Shown here: positions 17,723 through 27,712 of the stretch, one piece after another
How positions within the stretch are numbered: position 1 is the stretch's first letter
Layout: each line of letters starts with the position of its first letter
IMG/VR virus record: IMGVR_UViG_3300024290_000003
Span: 2,163 to 66,162 of that record
DNA from: a virus
Taxonomy: Duplodnaviria > Caudoviricetes
Length of the DNA: 64,000 nt
Reading direction: 5' to 3' (one strand)
Position numbers and translations under genes: made by a program
Notes under the pieces: model-generated
What the model saw: only the letters and a program-made list of their open reading frames with translations
What the model was told of the DNA's origin: nothing
Database searches by the model: none

Positions 17723-17769
17723 AGCGGCTTGTGGACGCCAGCGCAGGGGCGAAACGTTTCGCGGAAATT

Positions 17770-18249
17770 ATGAGCTTCTATACCGAGATAATCCAGCACG
17801 ATCCACGGTTCCACTCGAACGATAGTATCCGCGACTTGAATCTCCTAGAGCCGATAACCCGCCGTGCGGTGGAGAACATCATTGCAGATGCCGCTGTAGC
17901 AAATATCACGCTCATGGTCACGGAGACGTTTCGATCAAAGGAACGGCAGGTGGTTCTCTTCAATCAAGGGGCGTCGCATCTGAAGGATGTCGGGGTTCAC
18001 CATTACGGACTGGCGTGCGATTTCGCCAAGGTCATTGACGGCAAGCCGTCATGGGCTGGCGATTGGGGTTTTCTGCGCGATCTAGCTAAAAAGCACGGCC
18101 TAATAAGCGGGCTCGACTGGGGGCAGCCATACGCGAAGCATTCCTTTGTGGACCCGGATCATGTACAGAGGATCATGATTTGGGAGCAGGCACGTTTGTT
18201 CAGCGGAGACTGGTACCCGGCTGATCCAAGCATAGAAATAGCGGTATGA
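17770..18249 (+). CDS. Endolysin, M15 family (L-Ala-D-Glu peptidase-like)
   Basis: TETFRSKERQ, HHYGLACDF, DPDHVQ zinc-peptidase motifs. Confidence 0.85.
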   Translation: MSFYTEIIQHDPRFHSNDSIRDLNLLEPITRRAVENIIADAAVANITLMVTETFRSKERQVVLFNQGASHLKDVGVHHYGLACDFAKVIDGKPSWAGDWGFLRDLAKKHGLISGLDWGQPYAKHSFVDPDHVQRIMIWEQARLFSGDWYPADPSIEIAV

Positions 18250-19800: not shown

Positions 19801-20125
19801 GGCTATCAATCCGTCGCAGCGAGTCCCATTCTACGGTTGAGCAAAAAGGCATCCACTGGCACTGAGCACGACTCAAGACCAGTTCGTAGAAAAATGGAAC
19901 ATCATTTCGGTTGTTGGCGAATAGTTGCGGTATCAACATGCCGAACAAAAGCATAAACAAGATCCCAAGCAAGGCCGCGCATTGCACGGAGAAAACTGCA
20001 ATGACCAACCAAGTAGGCACCCCCGACCACGCGCGCCTGTGTCGCCCTAGCAATGCTATATGGGCACCAATCATTGTCTTTCGTAGCATACCACCTTGCG
20101 CGTAATCCTGAGACCGAAACCAATC

Positions 20126-20428
20126 ATGCCTAGATCCGACCAACCATCGCTCGACCTGCTCATCATGTTCCTCGGGCTGACGCTCGCAATCATGGGCGCA
20201 CTCACAGTATTCTTCACGCCGAAATACGAGACAGGATTCCAGCTAATCATCATGGCGCTGCTGTCTGCCTTCAGCGGGGCTTGCGGCGCGAAGTGGGGCC
20301 TGTCGCAGCAAGCCACCACACCGCCGCCCGCTGGAACCGTTCAACGCACCGAGTTGTCCACCAAGACCACCGAAGTCGCGCCCGCCGTCCCACCTCAGCC
20401 AACCGAAGTAAAGGAGAACCATCCATGA
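20126..20428 (+). CDS. Two-TM protein, holin candidate
   Basis: Two hydrophobic helices downstream of endolysin. Confidence 0.45.
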   Translation: MPRSDQPSLDLLIMFLGLTLAIMGALTVFFTPKYETGFQLIIMALLSAFSGACGAKWGLSQQATTPPPAGTVQRTELSTKTTEVAPAVPPQPTEVKENHP

Positions 20429-20586
20429 TAATTTACTTGAGTTTATTGGTCGCCCTGGTGGGCGTCCTGATGTACGCACTTTCCGCGAATCCGAAGCTAC
20501 AGGAGATCGGCCGCATCTCGTTTGCGATGGGCCTACTCGCTTTCCTGCTGCGAGTCAGCGACGCCGCTTTCCAGATCATCAAGTGA
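20425..20586 (+). CDS. Small two-TM protein
   Basis: AAGGAG RBS; MIIYLSLLVALVGVLMYALSANPKLQEIGRISFAMGLLAFLL. Confidence 0.65.
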   Translation: MIIYLSLLVALVGVLMYALSANPKLQEIGRISFAMGLLAFLLRVSDAAFQIIK

Positions 20587-20590
20587 TGCC

Positions 20591-20743
20591 ATGTGGCTTA
20601 TCTTGTTGATCGTTCTCATCCTGCTGCTGATCGGCGGATTACCGACGTGGCCCCACTCGCAAGGCTGGGGCTACGGGCCATCCGGCGTAGTGGGCCTGAT
20701 TCTGGTCATCATCCTGATCTTGCTGCTGCTCGGAAAATTGTAA
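20591..20743 (+). CDS. DUF3309 family small membrane protein
   Basis: LLIGGLPTWPHSQGWGYGPSGVVGLILVI signature. Confidence 0.85.
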   Translation: MWLILLIVLILLLIGGLPTWPHSQGWGYGPSGVVGLILVIILILLLLGKL

Positions 20744-21049
20744 ATGGACTTCAACAACATCCCAACCGCTGCGGCGATCACGATGTTCGGTGCTGTCGCG
20801 GCTGGCCCAGTGCTGGCGGCATTCAATTCTTGGCTGGCGAACCGCAACGCCAAGCGAGCAGCGGACGCCGCGAAGCTCGTGGCGGATGCGCTCAAAGAGA
20901 GCCATAGCACTACGGACGTTAAGCTCGCCGAGATACATACGCTGGTGAACAGCCGTCTCACCGAAGCGCTGGACTACATTCACAAGCTGGAAGTGTTGCT
21001 GCGCGACGCGACGGGACGGCCAGTAGAGGGAGAGCCGCATGGCCGATGA
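20744..21049 (+). CDS. Membrane-anchored coiled-coil protein
   Basis: N-terminal TM; EIHTLVNSRL motif. Confidence 0.6.
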   Translation: MDFNNIPTAAAITMFGAVAAGPVLAAFNSWLANRNAKRAADAAKLVADALKESHSTTDVKLAEIHTLVNSRLTEALDYIHKLEVLLRDATGRPVEGEPHGR

Positions 21050-21417: not shown

Positions 21418-21492
21418 TGGTCCAGGCGGCTGGATTCGAACCAGCGTGGGCTTGCTCCCAAGGCAAGTGGGTGGCCGCTACCCGACGCCTGG
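21418..21492 (-). tRNA. tRNA-Pro(TGG)
   Basis: CCAGGCG/CGCCTGG acceptor, CTTGC-CTTGGGA-GCAAG, GTTCGAATC, ACCA end. Confidence 0.9.
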
Positions 21493-21496
21493 ATTT

Positions 21497-21571
21497 TGGT
21501 GGACTCGCTCGGATTTGAACCGAGATCTGACTGGGTGCAGGCCAGCCGCTCTCCCGTTGAGCTACAAGCCC
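21497..21571 (-). tRNA. tRNA-Ala(TGC), atypical C33
   Basis: G3:U70 and A73 alanine identity; GCTGG-CCTGCAC-CCAGT; GTTCAAATC; CCA. Confidence 0.85.
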
Positions 21572-21619
21572 ACAAGAGAGCGATTTACGGGCGTGCTGAT
21601 GATGATGGGGTTGGAGGAT

Positions 21620-21696
21620 TGGAGCCGGTGACAGGAATCGAACCTGCGCAGTCCGCTTTACAGGAGCGGTGCTCAGCCAACGCGAGCGACACCGGC
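21620..21696 (-). tRNA. tRNA-Thr(TGT), atypical C33
   Basis: GCCGGTG/CACCGGC acceptor; CCGCT-CCTGTAA-AGCGG; GTTCGATTC; CCA. Confidence 0.85.
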
Positions 21697-21745
21697 CCGC
21701 GCGTGGTTCCTGTGGTTGTTTGCTCCACGAGATAAGCATATCACA

Positions 21746-22192
21746 ATGAAACTCGCATTCAAACTGGTATCCGCCGGTGGCCTGATCGACCGCGCAATCG
21801 GCTGGTGGACCCAATCGCCCTACTGCCACGTCGAGCTGGTGTTCGACCAGATGGGCGTGCCCGATGATTGCTTCAGCGCCGATCCGAAGCGTGGCGTGCG
21901 GTTCACGCATGTGGATTGGAGCGACACCAAGACGTGGAAGGTGGTCGGTCTGGCGGTGTCGGAGAGCCAGGAGCGCGTGGCCTACTTCTTTGCTCGTGAT
22001 GCGCTCGTAGGGCGAAAATACAACAAGCGCGGCATCCTGAGATTCTTGTTCGGATTCGTTAGCAGCAAGCCAAACGAGGAGTTCTGCTCACAGGTCATTC
22101 TGATTGATTGCCAACACATTGGGCTGTGGCCGGGCGATCCTCCGGTTCGCATCGACCCAGGCTTTCTAGCACAATTGGCGGAAGCGGAGTAA
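21746..22192 (+). CDS. Permuted papain-like amidase (YiiX/YaeF, C92-like)
   Basis: SPYCHVELV, GRKYN, EFCSQ (His before Cys). Confidence 0.7.
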   Translation: MKLAFKLVSAGGLIDRAIGWWTQSPYCHVELVFDQMGVPDDCFSADPKRGVRFTHVDWSDTKTWKVVGLAVSESQERVAYFFARDALVGRKYNKRGILRFLFGFVSSKPNEEFCSQVILIDCQHIGLWPGDPPVRIDPGFLAQLAEAE

Positions 22193-22243: not shown

Positions 22244-22627
22244 ATGCACTACGTCGAGGTTGACCTGTACGTATCGGAGCAGGCCATGTGGTTTCGCACT
22301 CTAGTCTTTTTCATCGCCGGTCTGTTTAGCCTCGCTGTGCTGGTGATGACCGCACAAGAGCGCTTCCGCTATATCCCGCAAAACGAGAAGGCTGAAGCGG
22401 CCTTCCAACAATCGCTACAGAATGCGGAACACCTCACGCAGCTTGAACGTTCCGTATCCGATCTCCGGGCGCTGTCCCTCGATGTTCGGCTGACCAAAAT
22501 CGAGGCTACGCTCGACACCATCTGGAAACTGTTGATGGGCATCCTGGTTCCGCTGGTGCTGCTGATCTTTGACCGCTTTATCATTAGCGTCATACCGATG
22601 TTCCGCAGAAAGTCCGATAGTAACTAA
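22244..22627 (+). CDS. TM-coiled coil-TM protein
   Basis: Two hydrophobic helices flanking a leucine coiled coil. Confidence 0.6.
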   Translation: MHYVEVDLYVSEQAMWFRTLVFFIAGLFSLAVLVMTAQERFRYIPQNEKAEAAFQQSLQNAEHLTQLERSVSDLRALSLDVRLTKIEATLDTIWKLLMGILVPLVLLIFDRFIISVIPMFRRKSDSN

Positions 22628-22641
22628 AAGGAGCATTACAA

Positions 22642-22764
22642 ATGAAGAAACTTGCCATCACCATTTTTGCCGTCGTAGTACTGGCGGTCGGCTACAAGGT
22701 GAGTACCGGATCCTTCGATATTGATCCTCCTCCCTGTTGGCCGCAATGTACCCCGGTTAAGTAG
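22642..22764 (+). CDS. 40-aa secreted Cys-peptide precursor (absent from ORF track)
   Basis: AAGGAG RBS; MKKLAITIFAVVVLAVGYKVSTGSFDIDPPPCWPQCTPVK. Confidence 0.75.
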   Translation: MKKLAITIFAVVVLAVGYKVSTGSFDIDPPPCWPQCTPVK

Positions 22765-22787
22765 GGAGATTTGCCTCGCCCGCAGAA

Positions 22788-23564
22788 TTGTGGCACACTT
22801 GCTCTACCGTGTGGATACAACTTCTGCGGGGCGGGGCGGTCATAGCTCTCGTCTTTCTGTTATCCCGCTATCTCTGGCTCGGCCTCGCTCGCCGCTATCG
22901 ATTCTTCTGCACCTATGCCGCCGTCCAGCTCACCGTAACGATCTCGTTCGCCTACTTCTTTGACTTACGCTCGCAAGCCTACGCTGTGGCGTGGGTGCTC
23001 TCGCGCTGGATTATAATCGCGCTACAGATCGCCGCCGCCGCTGAGGTCTATTGGATGATCGCTTATGCGCCACGCGGCACCCGCTGGCTTCCGCTGGTGG
23101 TCATGCTGCCCGTTGCCGCCCTCGGCTCCGGCGGCTTGATGGTCGTCCAAGGCTACGCCATCACTCCCGATTCCGGCTTCCTCCGCATCCTTCAAATCAC
23201 CTGCCTCGTATATTCCTCGCTCAGCTTCGCCGTCGTAATCGGTCTCCTGCTTCTCGCCGTGTTCCTGATTCTGGACGCGCAGCGCCACAATACAGTTGTC
23301 TATTGGCTCGGCCTGATGACGTACTTCACCATTCAGGGGCTGACGTTCTTTCTGCAATACATCGTTGCACTGAAGTGGGAATTGCTCTATGCGGCATTCC
23401 TGCCCGCTAATGCGGTCGTGCTGCTGTTGTGGGGATTGCTGACCACTAGCGCCGGAGAGCGGCCGCCGCCAGCGGTTAGACGACACACGCCATTTGCGGA
23501 TAAGATCCGTAAGAACGGCGTGGTACGGCGGTTCAAACTTGAGTGGGAACGCGCCGCGATCTGA
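22788..23564 (+). CDS. Seven-TM membrane protein (putative peptide receptor)
   Basis: Seven hydrophobic helices counted by eye, basic C-terminal tail, no kinase domain. Confidence 0.7.
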   Translation: MWHTCSTVWIQLLRGGAVIALVFLLSRYLWLGLARRYRFFCTYAAVQLTVTISFAYFFDLRSQAYAVAWVLSRWIIIALQIAAAAEVYWMIAYAPRGTRWLPLVVMLPVAALGSGGLMVVQGYAITPDSGFLRILQITCLVYSSLSFAVVIGLLLLAVFLILDAQRHNTVVYWLGLMTYFTIQGLTFFLQYIVALKWELLYAAFLPANAVVLLLWGLLTTSAGERPPPAVRRHTPFADKIRKNGVVRRFKLEWERAAI

Positions 23565-24006
23565 TCGAGTCCGATAACTGGCGAAAGGATTCCTCCCGCA
23601 GTTTCGGGCGCATTCGGATCTCAAACAACAACATTAAGTCGCGTTTCAAGCGAATCATGTTGGCAAATAAAGCGCTACGTTTACCGGCCCTGTAGGATTG
23701 CAGGCAGGCTTGCAGGTTGACCGCTATCACGTAGCGCGTCAGCGCACCGCAGGCAGCCTTCCGCCGGGTATCGTCCTTGCCGGATTCGCGCATCTCGCGG
23801 ATCGCCTGCGGCTCGTCCCTGGCGTCCAGCACGGGCTTCCAGCGGTCGAAGCCGGATGGGTTGGGATACAGTGGGCCGCTATTACGCCCCGGATGGTCCC
23901 GAAGCGCCTTCATTTCATCAAAGATAAGATTGCACGCCTTTTGAACTGCGGTCAGCGCAAGCTGGTACTCCTCGACTTCTTGGGTCGTCGGGTCCATCGT
24001 TATCAA
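23533..24006 (-). CDS. Hypothetical helical protein downstream of the repressor-like gene
   Basis: 157-aa ORF, same strand as 24218-24547. Confidence 0.55.
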   Translation of the reverse strand: MITMDPTTQEVEEYQLALTAVQKACNLIFDEMKALRDHPGRNSGPLYPNPSGFDRWKPVLDARDEPQAIREMRESGKDDTRRKAACGALTRYVIAVNLQACLQSYRAGKRSALFANMIRLKRDLMLLFEIRMRPKLREESFRQLSDSIRSRRVPTQV

Positions 24007-24217
24007 TGCCCCCTAAGTAACGCTGGTAACATCGTCATATTTGCACAGATTTAGCGCCAATTCAAGCGGATATTTCGGGCAGTTCTGTGGAAAACACCCG
24101 CCTAGAAATAGGTATAAGTACCACCCGCGAACAAGATTGCGATTATGGTACGTGTTTTCGTGGCTGCAAGTGCCGTGGAATCTGTCCGACATCAGCTTTT
24201 CAGAACAGAAACAGCGC

Positions 24218-24547
24218 CTACATGTACGGTTTTAACATTTCCAGAAGCATATTACGAAACAATCGCAACGCCACCGGCTTGCGGTTGCAGTCCTTGAGGA
24301 AAAGCCGAACGGCGTTGACGATTCGGTCTTCTTCGGTCATCGGAGGCTTCTCCTGGCTTTTTTCTGCAACCTCCTGTTTGATGTATGCGATCAGGACCGA
24401 GGCCATGTCAGTGCCCCTGTCCTCGCACAATCGCTTGAATGCCTTCCGCAGTTCGGCATCCCCAATGTCGAACGAGATCGGCACTCGATCCCCGTTAATT
24501 TCCCTATCCAAAATCGTCTCCTTGAAGATTTCCACAGATTTTCTCAT
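24218..24547 (-). CDS. Ribbon-helix-helix repressor candidate
   Basis: VPISFDIGDAELRKAFKRLCEDRGTDMASVLIAYIKQEV pattern; divergent from the early operon. Confidence 0.65.
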   Translation of the reverse strand: MRKSVEIFKETILDREINGDRVPISFDIGDAELRKAFKRLCEDRGTDMASVLIAYIKQEVAEKSQEKPPMTEEDRIVNAVRLFLKDCNRKPVALRLFRNMLLEMLKPYM

Positions 24548-24551
24548 CGGA

Positions 24552-24612
24552 CATGACAACAGGCCTTGACAAGGCATGTCAACATGCTCATAATCGTGTT
24601 CAGCATGTCAGC
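24552..24612 (+). promoter_or_regulatory. sigma70 promoter of early operon with operator repeats
   Basis: TTGACA(24566)-17 bp-CATAAT(24589); repeats CATGACAAC, CATGTCAAC, CATGTCAGC; palindrome TTGACA-AGGCA-TGTCAA. Confidence 0.8.
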
Positions 24613-24811
24613 ATCAACAATACAGCAAACCGGGCAGGATTCCAAACCAAACGTCAAAATCTTCTCGACGAGGGTACCAGTATCTTTAATCACGCGTGCA
24701 AAATTTGCAGCTCTTGAATCAGGAAAAAGCGTTCAGCAACTCTTCATTGAGGCCCTGGTCTCCCACCTAGACCGCGAAGATAAAGCGAAGGCACGGAGGG
24801 CGGCGCGGTGA
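24605..24811 (+). CDS. Arc/CopG-like ribbon-helix-helix regulator (cro position)
   Basis: KIFSTRVPVSLITRAKFAALESGKSVQQLFIEALVSHL. Confidence 0.75.
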   Translation: MSASTIQQTGQDSKPNVKIFSTRVPVSLITRAKFAALESGKSVQQLFIEALVSHLDREDKAKARRAAR

Positions 24812-25986: not shown

Positions 25987-26438
25987 CCGCCCCGCGCACA
26001 TTGCAGCTCGTACCGATCAGCTTAGCTGAGGCGAACGAGTTTGTGCGCTTGCATCACCGTCACCATAATCCGGTGCCTGGGGCAAAGTTTTGCGTGGCTG
26101 TAGCGACTCCCGGTGTGGTGCATGGCGTCGCCATCGTTGGCCGACCAATAGCACGAATGGCTGACGACGGCTGGACGCTGGAAGTCAACCGGACCTGCAC
26201 GGATGGTACAAAAAACGTTAACTCGATGTTGTACGGAGCCTGCCAGCGTGCTACGTTTGCGCTCGGCTACAAAAAGCTCATCACGTACACTCTGCCAACT
26301 GAATCCGGCGCATCGCTCCGAGCTGTTGGCTGGACGTGCATCGGTTCCGCTGGCGGAGGTCGATGGAGCCGCGAGTCCCGACCGCGTATCGACACACATC
26401 CGCTTCAGGAGAAGTTGCGCTGGGAGGTGACCGCGTGA
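25983..26438 (+). CDS. XF1762 family protein
   Basis: PISLAEANEFVRLHHRHH...GVAIVGRPIAR...LEVNRTCTDG...ITYTL..ESGASLRAVGW. Confidence 0.8.
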   Translation: MTAPRTLQLVPISLAEANEFVRLHHRHHNPVPGAKFCVAVATPGVVHGVAIVGRPIARMADDGWTLEVNRTCTDGTKNVNSMLYGACQRATFALGYKKLITYTLPTESGASLRAVGWTCIGSAGGGRWSRESRPRIDTHPLQEKLRWEVTA

Positions 26439-27712
26439 CCGCCCCGCGCCTACTGTCCGGCGATGCTATTATGCGTTTGCTCAACGGGAGTGAGCGCGAA
26501 ATGCCAAGACAGAGGTGTCAGAATCCAACTTTGAGACAGCGGAAGGACGGCCTGTGGTACATCCTTCCTTGGGTTGACGTGCGCGACGGTTGCGGCGGTA
26601 CGGTCCGCATGAAGAAGAGGATCGTGCTCGGTCCGCTTACCAAGCGCGAAGCCATCATCAAGCGGAACCAGGTGATGGAAACCATCAACAATAGCAAGCT
26701 CGTATTGCAGAGCCAAATCAAGTTCGGCTATTTCCTGGACAACTACTACATCAAGTCGTATCTGGACCGTCCAGGAGTCCTGAAAAGCACCACGCAAGCG
26801 GCGTACATGAGCCACATCCGCGTTCACATACGCCCGACCTGGGGCGAGATGCAGATGAGCGAGATCACGACGCGGCGCCTGGACGATTGGATGGCGGCGC
26901 TGACTAAGGCCGGGTTGTCGTACAACGCGCGCCACGACCTGCTGACGATGATGAGCGGGATCTTTACCAAGGCCGAGGACTGGGGTGTGTGGGACCAGCG
27001 GAACCCGTGTAAGCGCGTGACGGTTGGCCGCAACCTTCCGGTACGCGAGAAGCGGATGCTGACCGATCAGCAGATCCGGCTGCTGCTGGCGGCGCTGCCG
27101 GATAACGGCGTGCGGCTGATGGCTGAGATTGCGCTGTTCTGCACGCTGCGGGTGTCGGAGATCATGGGCTTGCAATGGAAGCACATCGACTTCGAGAACG
27201 GCTGCATCCACGTTCGGCAGCGAATGTCCAACGACGGCGAGCTCGCTGAGCCGAAGACGCGGAAGGCATTGCGCGATCCGCAGATGGGGCATTTGGCCGA
27301 GCGGTTGAAGGCTTTCAAATATGCTGGCGTGGCGGGTAATGCCGCGCCTGGAACCGCCCCGGTATCCGGGATTGCTACACGCCAGCACCAGACCGCCGAC
27401 GATTTCGTGTTCCGCTTCCCGAGCCGCAACGGGGGGTACCTGGGTTCAAATGACCTCGTTAAGAAGTACCTCAAGCCGGCCGCGAAAGCGATTGGGATCG
27501 ACCATAACGGATTCGCATGGCATTCCCTGAGGCGCCAAGCAGTCACGAACTACAACTCCAGCTTGGGAGTGACGCAGGCGATGAACATGGCGGGCCACAG
27601 CACGGTTGCGATGAGCGCCCTTTACACAATGTCGGACGCTGATGCGGCGAACGCGGCGGTGCGGGCGTTCCAGGAGCGGATTGCGGGTGAACCGACCGGA
27701 GGTGTGCAGTGA
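26435..27712 (+). CDS. int: Tyrosine integrase
   Basis: SAM-like core domain; catalytic LRVSE, PKT, HSLRR, AGH, LY. Confidence 0.92.
   Translation: MTAPRLLSGDAIMRLLNGSEREMPRQRCQNPTLRQRKDGLWYILPWVDVRDGCGGTVRMKKRIVLGPLTKREAIIKRNQVMETINNSKLVLQSQIKFGYFLDNYYIKSYLDRPGVLKSTTQAAYMSHIRVHIRPTWGEMQMSEITTRRLDDWMAALTKAGLSYNARHDLLTMMSGIFTKAEDWGVWDQRNPCKRVTVGRNLPVREKRMLTDQQIRLLLAALPDNGVRLMAEIALFCTLRVSEIMGLQWKHIDFENGCIHVRQRMSNDGELAEPKTRKALRDPQMGHLAERLKAFKYAGVAGNAAPGTAPVSGIATRQHQTADDFVFRFPSRNGGYLGSNDLVKKYLKPAAKAIGIDHNGFAWHSLRRQAVTNYNSSLGVTQAMNMAGHSTVAMSALYTMSDADAANAAVRAFQERIAGEPTGGVQ

Follow-up and report, generated by a model that had tools for sequence, protein, structure and literature searches.

A small gene for a putative exported peptide and the gene that follows it, encoding a stand-alone seven-helix membrane protein (here the 7TM protein), form a real, conserved pair in the window, by which we mean the whole 64,000-nucleotide stretch of phage DNA analysed here. 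Sequence comparison indicates that the pair belongs to a chromosomal cassette of Acidobacteriota from which the phage captured it, that it is not specific to phages, and that the phage has the cassette in a reduced form. A sequence-only reading of the window had proposed a phage peptide-signalling system; the same pair occurs in chromosomal Acidobacteriota loci, which argues against a phage invention. The best explanation, to which we give about an even chance, is that the phage carries the core of an undescribed Acidobacteriota module consisting of an exported peptide and its membrane partner. The module is common in soil Acidobacteria and previously undescribed; within the text that a full-text literature search opens to view, no published description of the peptide/7TM pair was found.

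The phage peptide gene

The features of the two genes are as follows.

22628–22633, plus strand: Shine-Dalgarno sequence AAGGAG, read from the sequence, 8 nt 5' of the peptide ATG
22642–22764, plus strand: gene for a putative exported peptide of 40 aa, placed by the ORF reading, its relatives and the aligned peptides
22642–22692, plus strand: predicted peptide leader, residues 1–17
22717–22749, plus strand: Pro/Cys core of the peptide, residues 26–36
22735–22737 and 22747–22749, plus strand: codons of Cys32 and Cys36
22809–23564, plus strand: gene for the seven-helix membrane protein, which has 251 aa with GTG 22809 as the start codon and 258 aa with TTG 22788
23490–23558, plus strand: predicted cytoplasmic C-terminal helix of the 7TM protein, residues 228–250

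The 40-aa ORF has the strong ribosome binding site, export-type leader and two cysteines that the sequence-only reading had ascribed to it. The leader starts with two Lys and continues as a hydrophobic run, sites obeying the (-3,-1) rule are present according to a crude script, and the tail is Pro-rich, with five Pro within the final 25 residues and Cys32 and Cys36 as the sole cysteines. The cleavage sites are weak and less canonical than those of the chromosomal peptides, and the phage peptide may therefore remain anchored in the membrane.

Judged by its relatives, the small ORF is more than a chance reading frame. It is annotated as a gene in public collections, and a 38-aa relative, 83% identical, comes from a contig of 67,870 bases; a 7TM protein 77% identical to that of the phage is on a contig of equal length. 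When contigs from four soil runs were compared with the region, two runs were identical in sequence, and one low-depth soil-run contig had a single synonymous change at 22701; this comparison carries no information on function.

A conserved pairing and a variable peptide family

Homologues of the 7TM protein were collected with profile A1, built from six sequences, which returned 67 library representatives at E ≤0.001. With a second profile, A2, hmmsearch gave the phage protein (locus L001) an E-value of 9.9e-53 over profile positions 4–238, a full-length family match; this score is partly circular, because the same protein is the first row of A2, and it is the A1 search that supports family membership independently.

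The flanks of these homologues contain adjacent ORFs for signal-plus-Cys peptides. Every one of the six GTDB loci retrieved with distant relatives of the 7TM protein had leader-plus-Cys ORFs upstream. When a fixed filter was applied to 37 distinct loci, 16 had leader-plus-two-Cys ORFs upstream of the 7TM homologue (25 ORFs). The density of such ORFs is 0.78/kb in the 900 bp upstream and 0.039/kb in the rest of the same loci, counted there on both strands, a difference of about 20-fold. Among the closest loci (hmmsearch E <1e-45) the upstream two-Cys peptide ORF is present in nine out of ten; it is absent from one close relative, L003. The strict filter finds no two-Cys peptide in 21 of the 37 superfamily loci, of which, by eye, ten have upstream Pro-rich ORFs with signal peptides and three have two-Cys peptides downstream. 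Some branches of the 7TM family are accompanied by Pro-rich peptides that contain no Cys.

Peptide genes are often repeated in tandem, with three copies in L004, four full copies and one cut copy in L006, two in L007, two in L009 and three in L043, and multi-repeat peptide precursors also occur in the family. Metagenome locus L002 has a 40-aa peptide relative, preceded by a GAGGAG site, in front of a 7TM gene whose product is 35% identical, and GGAG-type sites precede the peptide ORFs in L002 and L004–L009. In an alignment of 19 peptides both Cys are invariant, the loop between them varies from two to seven residues, and a (-3,-1)-rule site follows the hydrophobic run in 18 (by the same crude script rule). 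In the phage-like peptides the loop reads C-x-P-x(1-2)-C and the hydrophobic run is followed by Lys-Val-x-Thr, whereas the chromosomal peptides have an Ala-x-Ala-type site, and C-x-P-C cores are found among them. The P-x-C-x-P-x-C motif put forward from the phage sequence is thus too narrow for a family with this range of loops and with Cys-free branches.

The chromosomal cassette and its reduced phage form

Other genes recur beside the chromosomal pairs. Across the 37 loci there is an XRE regulator in 16, a 152-aa protein in 13 and a partner of ∼180 aa with one transmembrane segment (1-TM) in 17. In the chromosomal cassettes the 7TM gene is preceded by the peptide genes and followed by the gene for the 1-TM partner, and there are also the regulator, which is of the CI-like XRE type, and a palindromic site. 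An operator-like TTGTTCTG-N4-6-GAAAA element lies 5' of the peptide genes in all five loci checked. Some chromosomal pairs adjoin housekeeping genes, for example one for a UbiX-type flavoprotein.

Searching the six-frame translation of the phage window by hmmsearch, with E up to 10, gave no relatives of the XRE, 152-aa or 1-TM proteins, and there is no copy of the operator-like TTGTTCTG element near the phage operon; as a result, no output route is visible in the phage. Of the cassette genes, the phage and the two loci closest to it, L002 and L003, have the peptide/7TM core only (L003 being the locus that has no upstream peptide). A gene for a PAS histidine kinase lies directly downstream in L003 and a receiver-domain gene accompanies L002, and neighbours of this kinase/regulator type are confined to these two of the 37 loci. 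No genes for an exporter or an outer-membrane route were found in the loci examined. Nor were there further phage copies, either in IMG/VR with three profiles, where the scans depended on short patterns and are weak evidence, or in GenBank phages with tblastn.

A seven-helix protein with a conserved cytoplasmic face

The GTG at 22809 is the start used in database gene calls and is common to the homologues. The alternative TTG at 22788 lies 23 bp past the peptide stop, in agreement with the spacing first noticed, so that the intergenic gap is 23–44 bp depending on the start. Neither the peptide gene nor the 7TM gene has a match in Pfam, PHROGs or NCBIfam, and in particular the 7TM protein has no kinase (HisKA/HATPase), TPR, HTH or other domain from these collections, as the sequence-only reading had supposed for kinase and TPR domains. 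No fused 7TM forms were seen among proteins of 502–2000 aa, which is weak evidence. Profiles of the 7TM, XRE, 152-aa and 1-TM families gave only chance-level matches among the PDB sequences, and Foldseek gave no match for the 7TM model at E ≤0.001 in PDB or BFVD. The 7TM protein thus matches no characterised family in these structure and profile searches or in Pfam and NCBIfam.

An AlphaFold2 model based on 62 aligned relatives has a pLDDT of 90.9 and a pTM of 0.83, and was used in place of one from a six-sequence alignment (pLDDT 50.8). Its helices span residues 2–23, 31–49, 56–85, 94–115, 123–155, 160–185 and 190–211, with an additional helix at 228–250. Counted on the sequence, the loops proposed to be inside contain six Lys/Arg and the outer loops two, and the C-terminal tail is basic. 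The model accordingly places the predicted N-terminus outside and the C-terminus inside, as in GPCRs and rhodopsins.

Structural comparison points to the same general arrangement. The best match is the adhesion GPCR 8jmt_A (Z 12.7, rmsd 3.8 Å, 174 aligned residues), followed by the GPCR-like domain of LYCHOS (Z 11.5) and by receptors for peptide hormones, V2R among them (Z 10.8), all of them below the Z of ∼13 up to which helical bundles can match by arrangement alone. The best Foldseek matches are rhodopsins, with E-values of 0.12 and above and TM scores of 0.39–0.46, and sequence identity to the structural matches is 4–15%. The predicted likeness to GPCRs and rhodopsins, seven helices with the N-terminus out and the C-terminus in, is one of fold only and implies no G-protein or retinal machinery; we know of no G-protein or arrestin coupling partners in bacteria.

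Conservation among the 62 relatives is concentrated on the cytoplasmic side, the cytoplasmic third of the helices averaging 1.99 bits as against 1.45 for the outer third (Mann-Whitney p = 3.6e-5). Of the seven positions with the highest conservation, five are at or near the inner face, and the conserved cytoplasmic face comprises an R-R-Y loop, Glu79, Asn161, Trp208, Gly216-Glu217 and the C-terminal helix. Between the two phage copies, substitutions affect 12 of 75 outer-face positions and 26 of 94 inner ones (Fisher p = 0.09). The outer face has no excess and is not diverging faster, so that at this scale there is no sign of ligand–receptor co-diversification.

These patterns bear on the idea that the peptide is a substrate of the 7TM protein, which would mature, modify or move it as AgrB does AgrD, with the receptor elsewhere, for example in the kinase or regulator of L003 and L002. 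The presence of those two neighbouring genes, and the lack of an output domain in the 7TM protein, speak for it. However, such neighbours are too rare among the loci to be the rule, the peptides already have Sec-type leaders and signal-peptidase-type sites, and the invariant or near-invariant Tyr, Glu, Asn, Trp and Gly-Glu are mostly cytoplasmic, with no periplasm-facing set of Cys, His or Ser. Compared with Pfam and NCBIfam, the 62 family members also include no exosortase, CPBP/CAAX protease, rhomboid or other membrane peptide-processing family. We consider a processing role quite improbable.

Co-folding of the peptide and the 7TM protein

When the 7TM protein and the full-length peptide were co-folded, the score was 0.32 (0.35, 0.32 and 0.24 in the individual runs), compared with 0.00 for the best of three controls. 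Contact agreement between the runs was at least 81% and the pLDDT of the partner at least 62. Among 80 solved complexes 58 reach the mark used, as do 2 of 110 mismatched pairs, counts that are rough here because our own alignments were used. Passing scores of 0.60 or less were given by seven of the 80 solved complexes and by both of the passing mismatches, and a pass in this weak class is more often wrong than right unless the pairing is likely beforehand. The co-fold that the sequence-only reading had called for is thus positive relative to its controls, though in the weak class only. The conserved inner face, the variable outer face and the weak co-fold fit a peptide with a membrane receptor.

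The same co-fold would also suit a peptide that is retained in the periplasm as a sensor or small subunit, its abundance, redox state or loss reporting the condition of the envelope to the 7TM protein; MgrB–PhoQ and CpxP–CpxA are models for such an arrangement. Sec export in a diderm delivers the peptide to the periplasm only, the weakly cleaved phage peptide may stay anchored there, and the C-x-P-C cores resemble redox-active CxxC motifs. Against this, the variable Cys loop and the branches without Cys make conserved redox chemistry unlikely, and for the same reasons we rejected a thioredoxin-like CxxC enzyme. Up to five tandem copies and the multi-repeat precursors, moreover, fit a product that is consumed or diluted better than a stoichiometric subunit. 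We regard the periplasmic sensor as a rather unlikely account of the pair.

Position of the pair in the phage genome

The neighbouring features in the window are listed below.

21716–22192, plus strand: gene for a 158-aa protein (PHROG 1128, E 5e-17), possibly the first of the same operon, outside the conserved module
22244–22627, plus strand: gene that stops 14 bp short of the peptide gene; its 127-aa product contains two hydrophobic segments
23533–24006, minus strand: convergent ORF (157 aa, function unassigned) that overlaps the 3' end of the 7TM gene
24218–24577, minus strand, and 24566–24811, plus strand: divergent ribbon-helix-helix gene pair, a putative switch, given as context
24566–24594: promoter-like site matching at 11 of 12 positions, within the ribbon-helix-helix pair
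24574 and 24603: two GCATGTCA(A/G)CAT repeats at the ribbon-helix-helix gene pair

The 127-aa protein has no relative in the chromosomal cassettes. A scan of the sigma-70 type found no promoter before the peptide operon and no terminator after it, and Acidobacterial promoters may differ from that type.

Some 2–5 kb upstream, on the same strand, are an endolysin-like gene (17731–18249) and several small membrane-protein ORFs, which together with the resemblance of small Pro-rich exported Cys proteins to o-spanins could suggest that the pair is a spanin-, holin- or antiholin-like part of the lysis cassette. This is scarcely credible, and we rejected it: with Cys32 and Cys36 as its only cysteines the phage peptide has no lipobox Cys in its leader, three minus-strand tRNA genes lie between the pair and the lysis region, and the same pair is found in chromosomal loci beside the UbiX-type flavoprotein gene and with an XRE regulator.

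The sequence-only reading had the pair abutting the divergent repressor region, whereas in fact the 157-aa minus-strand ORF intervenes. An operator common to the switch and the peptide operon was looked for and not found. Nothing in these results connects the pair with the lysis–lysogeny choice. Of the outcomes named beforehand as fatal to the ligand/receptor proposal, those open to sequence analysis did not occur: homologues have adjacent Cys-peptide ORFs, and the membrane protein matches no characterised family. The pairing itself stands, backed by its conservation, and the co-fold is a weak pass; the attached roles in density sensing, superinfection control or the switch find no support, with a gene in between, no shared operator and neither an output domain nor a fused form of the 7TM protein. 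The pair sits in an accessory region ∼2.8 kb upstream of the integrase gene, and lysogenic-conversion genes are often near the integrase.

Comparison with known systems

To our knowledge, SdpC/SdpI/SdpR is the only well-known bacterial case in which a signal passes through a membrane protein lacking an enzymatic output domain. It appears closest to the present pair in logic, not in sequence. In Bacillus subtilis (PMC2910880), the exported peptide SdpC binds the kinase-less membrane protein SdpI, which then sequesters the repressor SdpR. The present pair likewise has a proposed exported peptide acting on a kinase-less polytopic membrane protein and, in chromosomes, a regulator gene nearby. Unlike SdpI, which is basically a 6-TMS protein, the present one has seven predicted helices in a GPCR-like arrangement and no sequence relation to it. 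Unlike SdpR, an ArsR-like autorepressor, the chromosomal regulator is XRE/CI-like, and the phage operon has none. There are also no SdpAB-type maturation genes, and the peptides are much shorter than SdpC and not hydrophobic.

The SdpC/SdpI precedent joins immunity with signalling (PMC2910880), and it raises the possibility of a toxin/immunity pair. The peptide would then kill in the manner of a bacteriocin, and the 7TM protein would shield the producing cell, here the lysogen, as SdpI does against SdpC, the prophage thereby helping its host to kill non-lysogens. Tandem small exported disulfide peptides beside a polytopic membrane protein are a common bacteriocin/immunity layout, and the place of the pair in the accessory region near the integrase is in keeping with such a function. 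The 19 exported tails, however, are short, hydrophilic and Pro-rich (medians 23 aa, GRAVY -0.37 and net charge 0), none of them having a net charge of +2 or above, and are for that reason unlike membrane-active peptides and toxins. Neither Pfam SdpI (0 of 62 family members at E ≤0.01) nor another immunity family is matched, the loci examined offer no way out through the outer membrane, and conservation on the cytoplasmic face would be needless in a protein for immunity only. A toxin/immunity function therefore seems unlikely to us.

As in arbitrium (AimP/AimR/AimX) and other RRNPP systems of Bacillota phages and bacteria, a small phage peptide, made with a secretion leader, is encoded near a lysogeny control region. 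RRNPP receptors are cytoplasmic HTH-TPR proteins and their peptides are imported via Opp; here, by contrast, the adjoining gene encodes an integral membrane protein of seven helices that lacks TPR and HTH domains, the host is a diderm and both Cys are retained in the peptides. Agr (AgrD/AgrB/AgrC/AgrA) and Com are similar in pairing a constrained Cys peptide with a polytopic membrane protein. In those systems a histidine kinase serves as the receptor and a protein for processing or export is required, while the present pair has no kinase domain, no AgrB-like gene and, on the weak evidence already given, no fused longer form. That the pair fits neither arbitrium nor Agr/Com, as the sequence-only reading held, is borne out.

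Proposed mechanism and significance

In the peptide/membrane-partner module that we favour, the small gene would give rise to a Sec-exported and cleaved peptide, whose Pro-rich tail of ∼23 residues would form a disulfide loop between its two Cys in the periplasm. The next gene would supply a stand-alone seven-helix inner-membrane protein. Binding of the exported peptide to the variable periplasmic face of this protein would change what the conserved cytoplasmic face holds or releases. In chromosomes the likely downstream partners are the ∼180-aa 1-TM protein and the CI-like XRE regulator with its operator-like site. Because all of the chromosomal partners are absent, the phage copy is most likely an accessory (moron) operon, and the pair may plug into or interfere with a host circuit, or act on another phage or host protein. 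As Sec export in a diderm reaches the periplasm only, cell–cell signalling would need an extra route across the outer membrane.

A bolder version, which we judge improbable as a whole, would make the pair a kinase-less receptor of GPCR-type fold with a disulfide-loop ligand, native to diderm soil bacteria, its core captured by a temperate phage. It would let lysogens or infected cells detect one another, or allow the phage to imitate a host signal, and the pair would act on the nearby ribbon-helix-helix switch through a regulator kept at the membrane. Such a system would amount to a Gram-negative counterpart of arbitrium made up of entirely different parts.

As far as we know, bacterial peptide signalling is known almost only in Gram-positives, through histidine kinases or through imported peptides and cytoplasmic receptors, and communication between phages by peptides (arbitrium) is known from Bacillota only. 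The peptide gene and the stand-alone seven-helix protein described here recur together throughout a major soil phylum that has been little studied, accompanied by amplified peptide genes and a dedicated regulator, and a temperate phage has acquired the two core genes. The question of what the two do is directly testable, since a peptide of ∼23 residues with one disulfide can be synthesised. If they prove to be a toxin with its immunity protein, or an envelope sensor, the present work would still name and link at least four unannotated protein families. If they are ligand and receptor, they would represent a new class of bacterial receptor, in an arrangement like that of eukaryotic peptide-hormone receptors, and would offer a first way into the study of sensing by peptides in Acidobacteriota and the phages of this phylum.

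Gene order around the peptide and membrane-protein genes

The window covers 64,000 of the 66,162 bases of its IMG/VR virus record, which CheckV rates complete. Its source is a temperate tailed phage, which also encodes an HNH endonuclease and a Mom-like protein. The features around the peptide gene, the seven-helix (7TM) protein gene and the putative lysis–lysogeny switch are as follows:

17731-18249, endolysin-like gene
21418-21696, minus strand, three tRNA genes (Pro-TGG, Ala-TGC, Thr-TGT)
21716-22192, plus strand, first of two genes 5' of the peptide gene, with short gaps
22244-22627, plus strand, second of these genes
22642-22764, plus strand, 40-codon peptide ORF, AAGGAG 8 nt upstream
22788 (TTG) or 22809 (GTG) to 23564, plus strand, membrane-protein ORF; GTG 22809 is the start in database gene calls and homologues
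23533-24006, minus strand, 157-aa ORF between the pair and the ribbon-helix-helix genes
24566-24594, promoter-like site between the divergent ribbon-helix-helix genes (24218-24577, minus; 24566-24811, plus)
26336-27712, tyrosine integrase

Because only short gaps separate the peptide gene from the two same-strand genes before it, the peptide/7TM pair may form the end of a four-gene operon. The sequence-only reading had the pair abutting the repressor region; it lies close to the putative switch without touching it, since the 157-aa minus-strand ORF intervenes.

Several further elements were seen nearby. Two direct repeats of GCATGTCA(A/G)CAT (24574-24585 and 24603-24614, spaced 29 bp) fall inside or just past the promoter-like site and are candidate operator sites. 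The plus-strand ribbon-helix-helix gene probably starts at ATG 24605, 11 nt past the -10 element, rather than at TTG 24566. The 14-nt motif ATTT(G/C)CACAGATTT occurs at 24039-24052 and 24528-24541, 5' of the 157-aa minus-strand ORF and of the minus-strand ribbon-helix-helix ORF (119 aa), which suggests a promoter or operator element common to the two. No operator common to the switch and the peptide operon was found. Some 1.8 kb past the endolysin-like gene begins a series of small ORFs (110, 52, 73 and 101 aa, at 20096-21049), each with one or two hydrophobic segments and none with a PHROG match; these are possible holin- or spanin-type genes. The tRNA trio sits between these small membrane-protein genes and the peptide-bearing operon.

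The peptide and its pairing with the membrane protein

The earlier description of this region, a short cysteine-bearing ORF with an export-type leader followed by a seven-helix protein, is how the sequence reads. The 40-aa product begins Met-Lys-Lys, continues with a hydrophobic run and ends in a Pro-rich tail holding Cys32 and Cys36. A profile built from this peptide and its relative at the metagenome locus L002 retrieved three called proteins: the window's own, a 38-aa protein at 83% identity and a 39-aa protein at 43%. The contig holding the 38-aa relative is 67,870 bases long, as is the one carrying the closest 7TM relative. Judged by these called proteins, the peptide ORF is a real gene.

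At L002, 115 bp separate a 40-aa ORF, itself preceded by GAGGAG, from the 7TM gene of 35% identity that follows; the small ORF shares the Met-Lys-x-Leu-Ala start of the window peptide and ends in Pro-Pro-x-Cys-x-Pro-Pro-x-Cys. A second metagenome locus, L003, has no comparable peptide ORF. Searching GTDB genomes with three distant family members gave six loci, five labelled Acidobacteriota or Bryobacteraceae and one Rhodospirillales. In every one of the six, the 7TM gene is preceded by at least one, and up to several, ORFs of 34–45 aa that open with a hydrophobic leader and finish in Pro-x-Pro-x-Cys-x-Pro-Cys. The peptide genes of the Rhodospirillales-labelled MAG (L006) are identical to, or one residue off, those of an Acidobacteriota MAG from the same project (L007), and the two loci score alike against the 7TM profile; from these matches, the Rhodospirillales label is likely a binning error.

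Profile matches turned up in 29 of 401 sampled Acidobacteriota genomes. We kept 37 distinct loci, leaving out the window itself (L001), L010–L014 (duplicates of L004–L009) and a fragment (L015). A filter for ORFs of 20–75 aa with a hydrophobic N-terminus and Cys-x(2-7)-Cys within the last 28 residues identified 25 ORFs in 16 of the 37 loci, on the same strand and within 900 bp 5' of the 7TM gene. The density of such two-Cys ORFs was 0.78 per kb upstream, against 0.039 per kb elsewhere on both strands (10 ORFs). The peptide was present in nine of the ten loci whose 7TM score was E <1e-45, and the pairing is maintained down to ∼20% identity of the 7TM protein.

The peptide gene is often amplified, with three tandem copies in L004 and L043, two in L007 and L009, and four full copies plus one cut at the contig end in L006. 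Among the 21 loci with no two-Cys upstream ORF, ten show, by eye, upstream signal-peptide ORFs with Pro-rich tails, as three tandem genes in L031, and three (L025, L026 and L044) have two-Cys peptides downstream. Four of the ten, on more distant 7TM branches (L019, L028, L029 and L035), carry a single upstream signal-peptide protein of three to five internal Pro-rich repeats (oriented positions 1127-1399 in L028 and 1062-1382 in L029), with a signal-peptidase-like site kept in every repeat of L029. The predicted architecture of these repeat-built proteins is a multi-core precursor design.

Both cysteines are invariant in an alignment of 19 peptides, and 18 of these have, by a crude criterion, a (-3,-1)-rule site past the hydrophobic run. 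The predicted exported tails have a median of 23 residues, a net charge of 0 and a GRAVY of -0.37; none of the 19 reaches a net charge of +2. The phage peptide has poorer cleavage sites than the chromosomal peptides, whose sites are of the Ala-x-Ala type, and so may stay anchored.

The seven-helix membrane protein

The 7TM protein matched nothing in Pfam, PHROGs or NCBIfam. When 5.8 billion proteins were searched by word index, only six came back: itself, one at 77% identity on the 67,870-base contig, and four at 34–37%, all on short contigs. A profile run against 1.84 billion cluster representatives gave 67 at E ≤0.001, nearly all of 250–280 aa and matching end to end; no longer fused forms were found, which is weak evidence. 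In the ESM Atlas the protein falls among unnamed clusters in which the commonest phylum is Acidobacteriota.

With 62 relatives aligned, AlphaFold2 predicted seven membrane helices and a C-terminal helix (pLDDT 90.9, pTM 0.83); a six-sequence alignment had given a poor model (pLDDT 50.8). By manual count, basic residues are concentrated in the loops following helices 1, 3 and 5 and in the tail, which places the N-terminus outside and the C-terminus inside. Foldseek gave no match at E ≤0.001 in PDB or BFVD. Exhaustive structural alignment ranked adhesion GPCRs top (8jmt_A, Z 12.7, rmsd 3.8 Å over 174 residues), followed by the LYCHOS GPCR-like domain and several peptide-hormone receptors (Z 9–11.5). 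As the alignment tool cautions that for helical bundles Z under ∼13 can reflect arrangement only, the modelled fold is a GPCR/rhodopsin-like seven-helix arrangement and no more than that.

Across the 62 relatives, the cytoplasmic third of the helices is more conserved than the outer third (1.99 versus 1.45 bits; p = 3.6e-5). Among the best-conserved positions are the Arg-Arg-Tyr loop that follows helix 1, Glu79 close to the cytoplasmic end of helix 3, Asn161 where helix 6 begins, Trp208, and the Gly216-Glu217 pair beyond helix 7. Conservation on the outer face is mainly at Tyr58 and Trp62. Between the two phage copies, the outer face did not change faster (12 of 75 positions, versus 26 of 94 on the inner face; p = 0.09).

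A chromosomal cassette and a reduced phage copy

Comparing neighbouring ORFs all-against-all over the 37 loci revealed recurrent partners. An XRE-type HTH protein of ∼285 aa, with only weak matches to Pfam HTH_19 and a C-terminal half that looks LexA/CI-type in sequence, is present in 16 loci; a 152-aa protein, on the opposite strand, in 13; and a ∼180-aa protein with one N-terminal membrane helix, directly 3' of the 7TM gene, in 17. By sequence the last, the 1-TM proteins, split into three clusters, and hhalign links two of these at 82% probability. All three partners lack both a Pfam family and a relative of solved structure.

In all five loci checked among L004–L009, the stretch separating the 152-aa gene from the first of the peptide genes holds a putative operator, the imperfect palindrome TTGTTCTG-N4-6-GAAAA. 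L016 has a looser copy, and L008 a perfect GTTCTGAAATCAGAAC 5' of the longer XRE-type ORF. Other neighbours of the cassette are housekeeping genes, such as one for a UbiX-type flavoprotein. These recurrent chromosomal partners and housekeeping neighbours indicate that the peptide/7TM module is chromosomal and old in Acidobacteriota, and that the phage holds a reduced copy.

When the window was translated in six frames, profiles of the three partner proteins had no hit up to E = 10, and neither the surroundings of the phage operon nor the loci L002 and L003 contain the operator-like element. These two loci, the nearest cellular relatives of the phage copy, also have none of the three partners within the short contigs at hand. 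The 7TM gene adjoins a membrane PAS histidine kinase gene in L003 (1990-3255) and a receiver-domain gene in L002 (1551-1889, minus strand).

Proposed mode of action

The persistent pairing and peptide gene amplification, the conservation pattern and the co-fold argue for a peptide and a membrane partner over two unrelated neighbours. A receptor that binds diverse ligands but acts on one shared downstream partner would be expected to vary on its outer face and stay constant on its inner one. Co-folding the 7TM protein with the full-length peptide, using our own alignments (one per partner), gave a weak pass: 0.32 (runs 0.35, 0.32 and 0.24), with 0.00 for the best of three controls. The runs share at least 81% of contacts, with a partner pLDDT of at least 62. 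The mark passes 58 of 80 solved complexes and lets through 2 of 110 mismatches; scores of 0.60 or under account for only seven of the 80 solved complexes and for both of those mismatches.

A Sec-exported peptide in a diderm cell would stop in the periplasm, so signalling between cells would need a further step. Given this stop, the lack of an outer-face excess, the missing peptide in L003, the weak cleavage sites, and the absence from the phage of a visible output partner and of an operator shared with the switch, we put the chance that the pair is a peptide and its membrane receptor at about even, and consider it improbable that it feeds the lysis–lysogeny decision.

A full-text literature search, judged by titles and the starts of abstracts, found no published description of such a pair, and none of the cassette's protein families is represented in the profile libraries; the module seems not to have been described in the literature. 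Mechanistically, its closest precedent is SdpC/SdpI/SdpR: as PMC2910880 describes, SdpC is exported and binds SdpI, a membrane protein that is not a kinase, and SdpI in turn sequesters the SdpR repressor. Since the two systems have no sequence relation, any likeness would be one of working and not of membership; by analogy, the peptide/7TM module may work as SdpCIR does.
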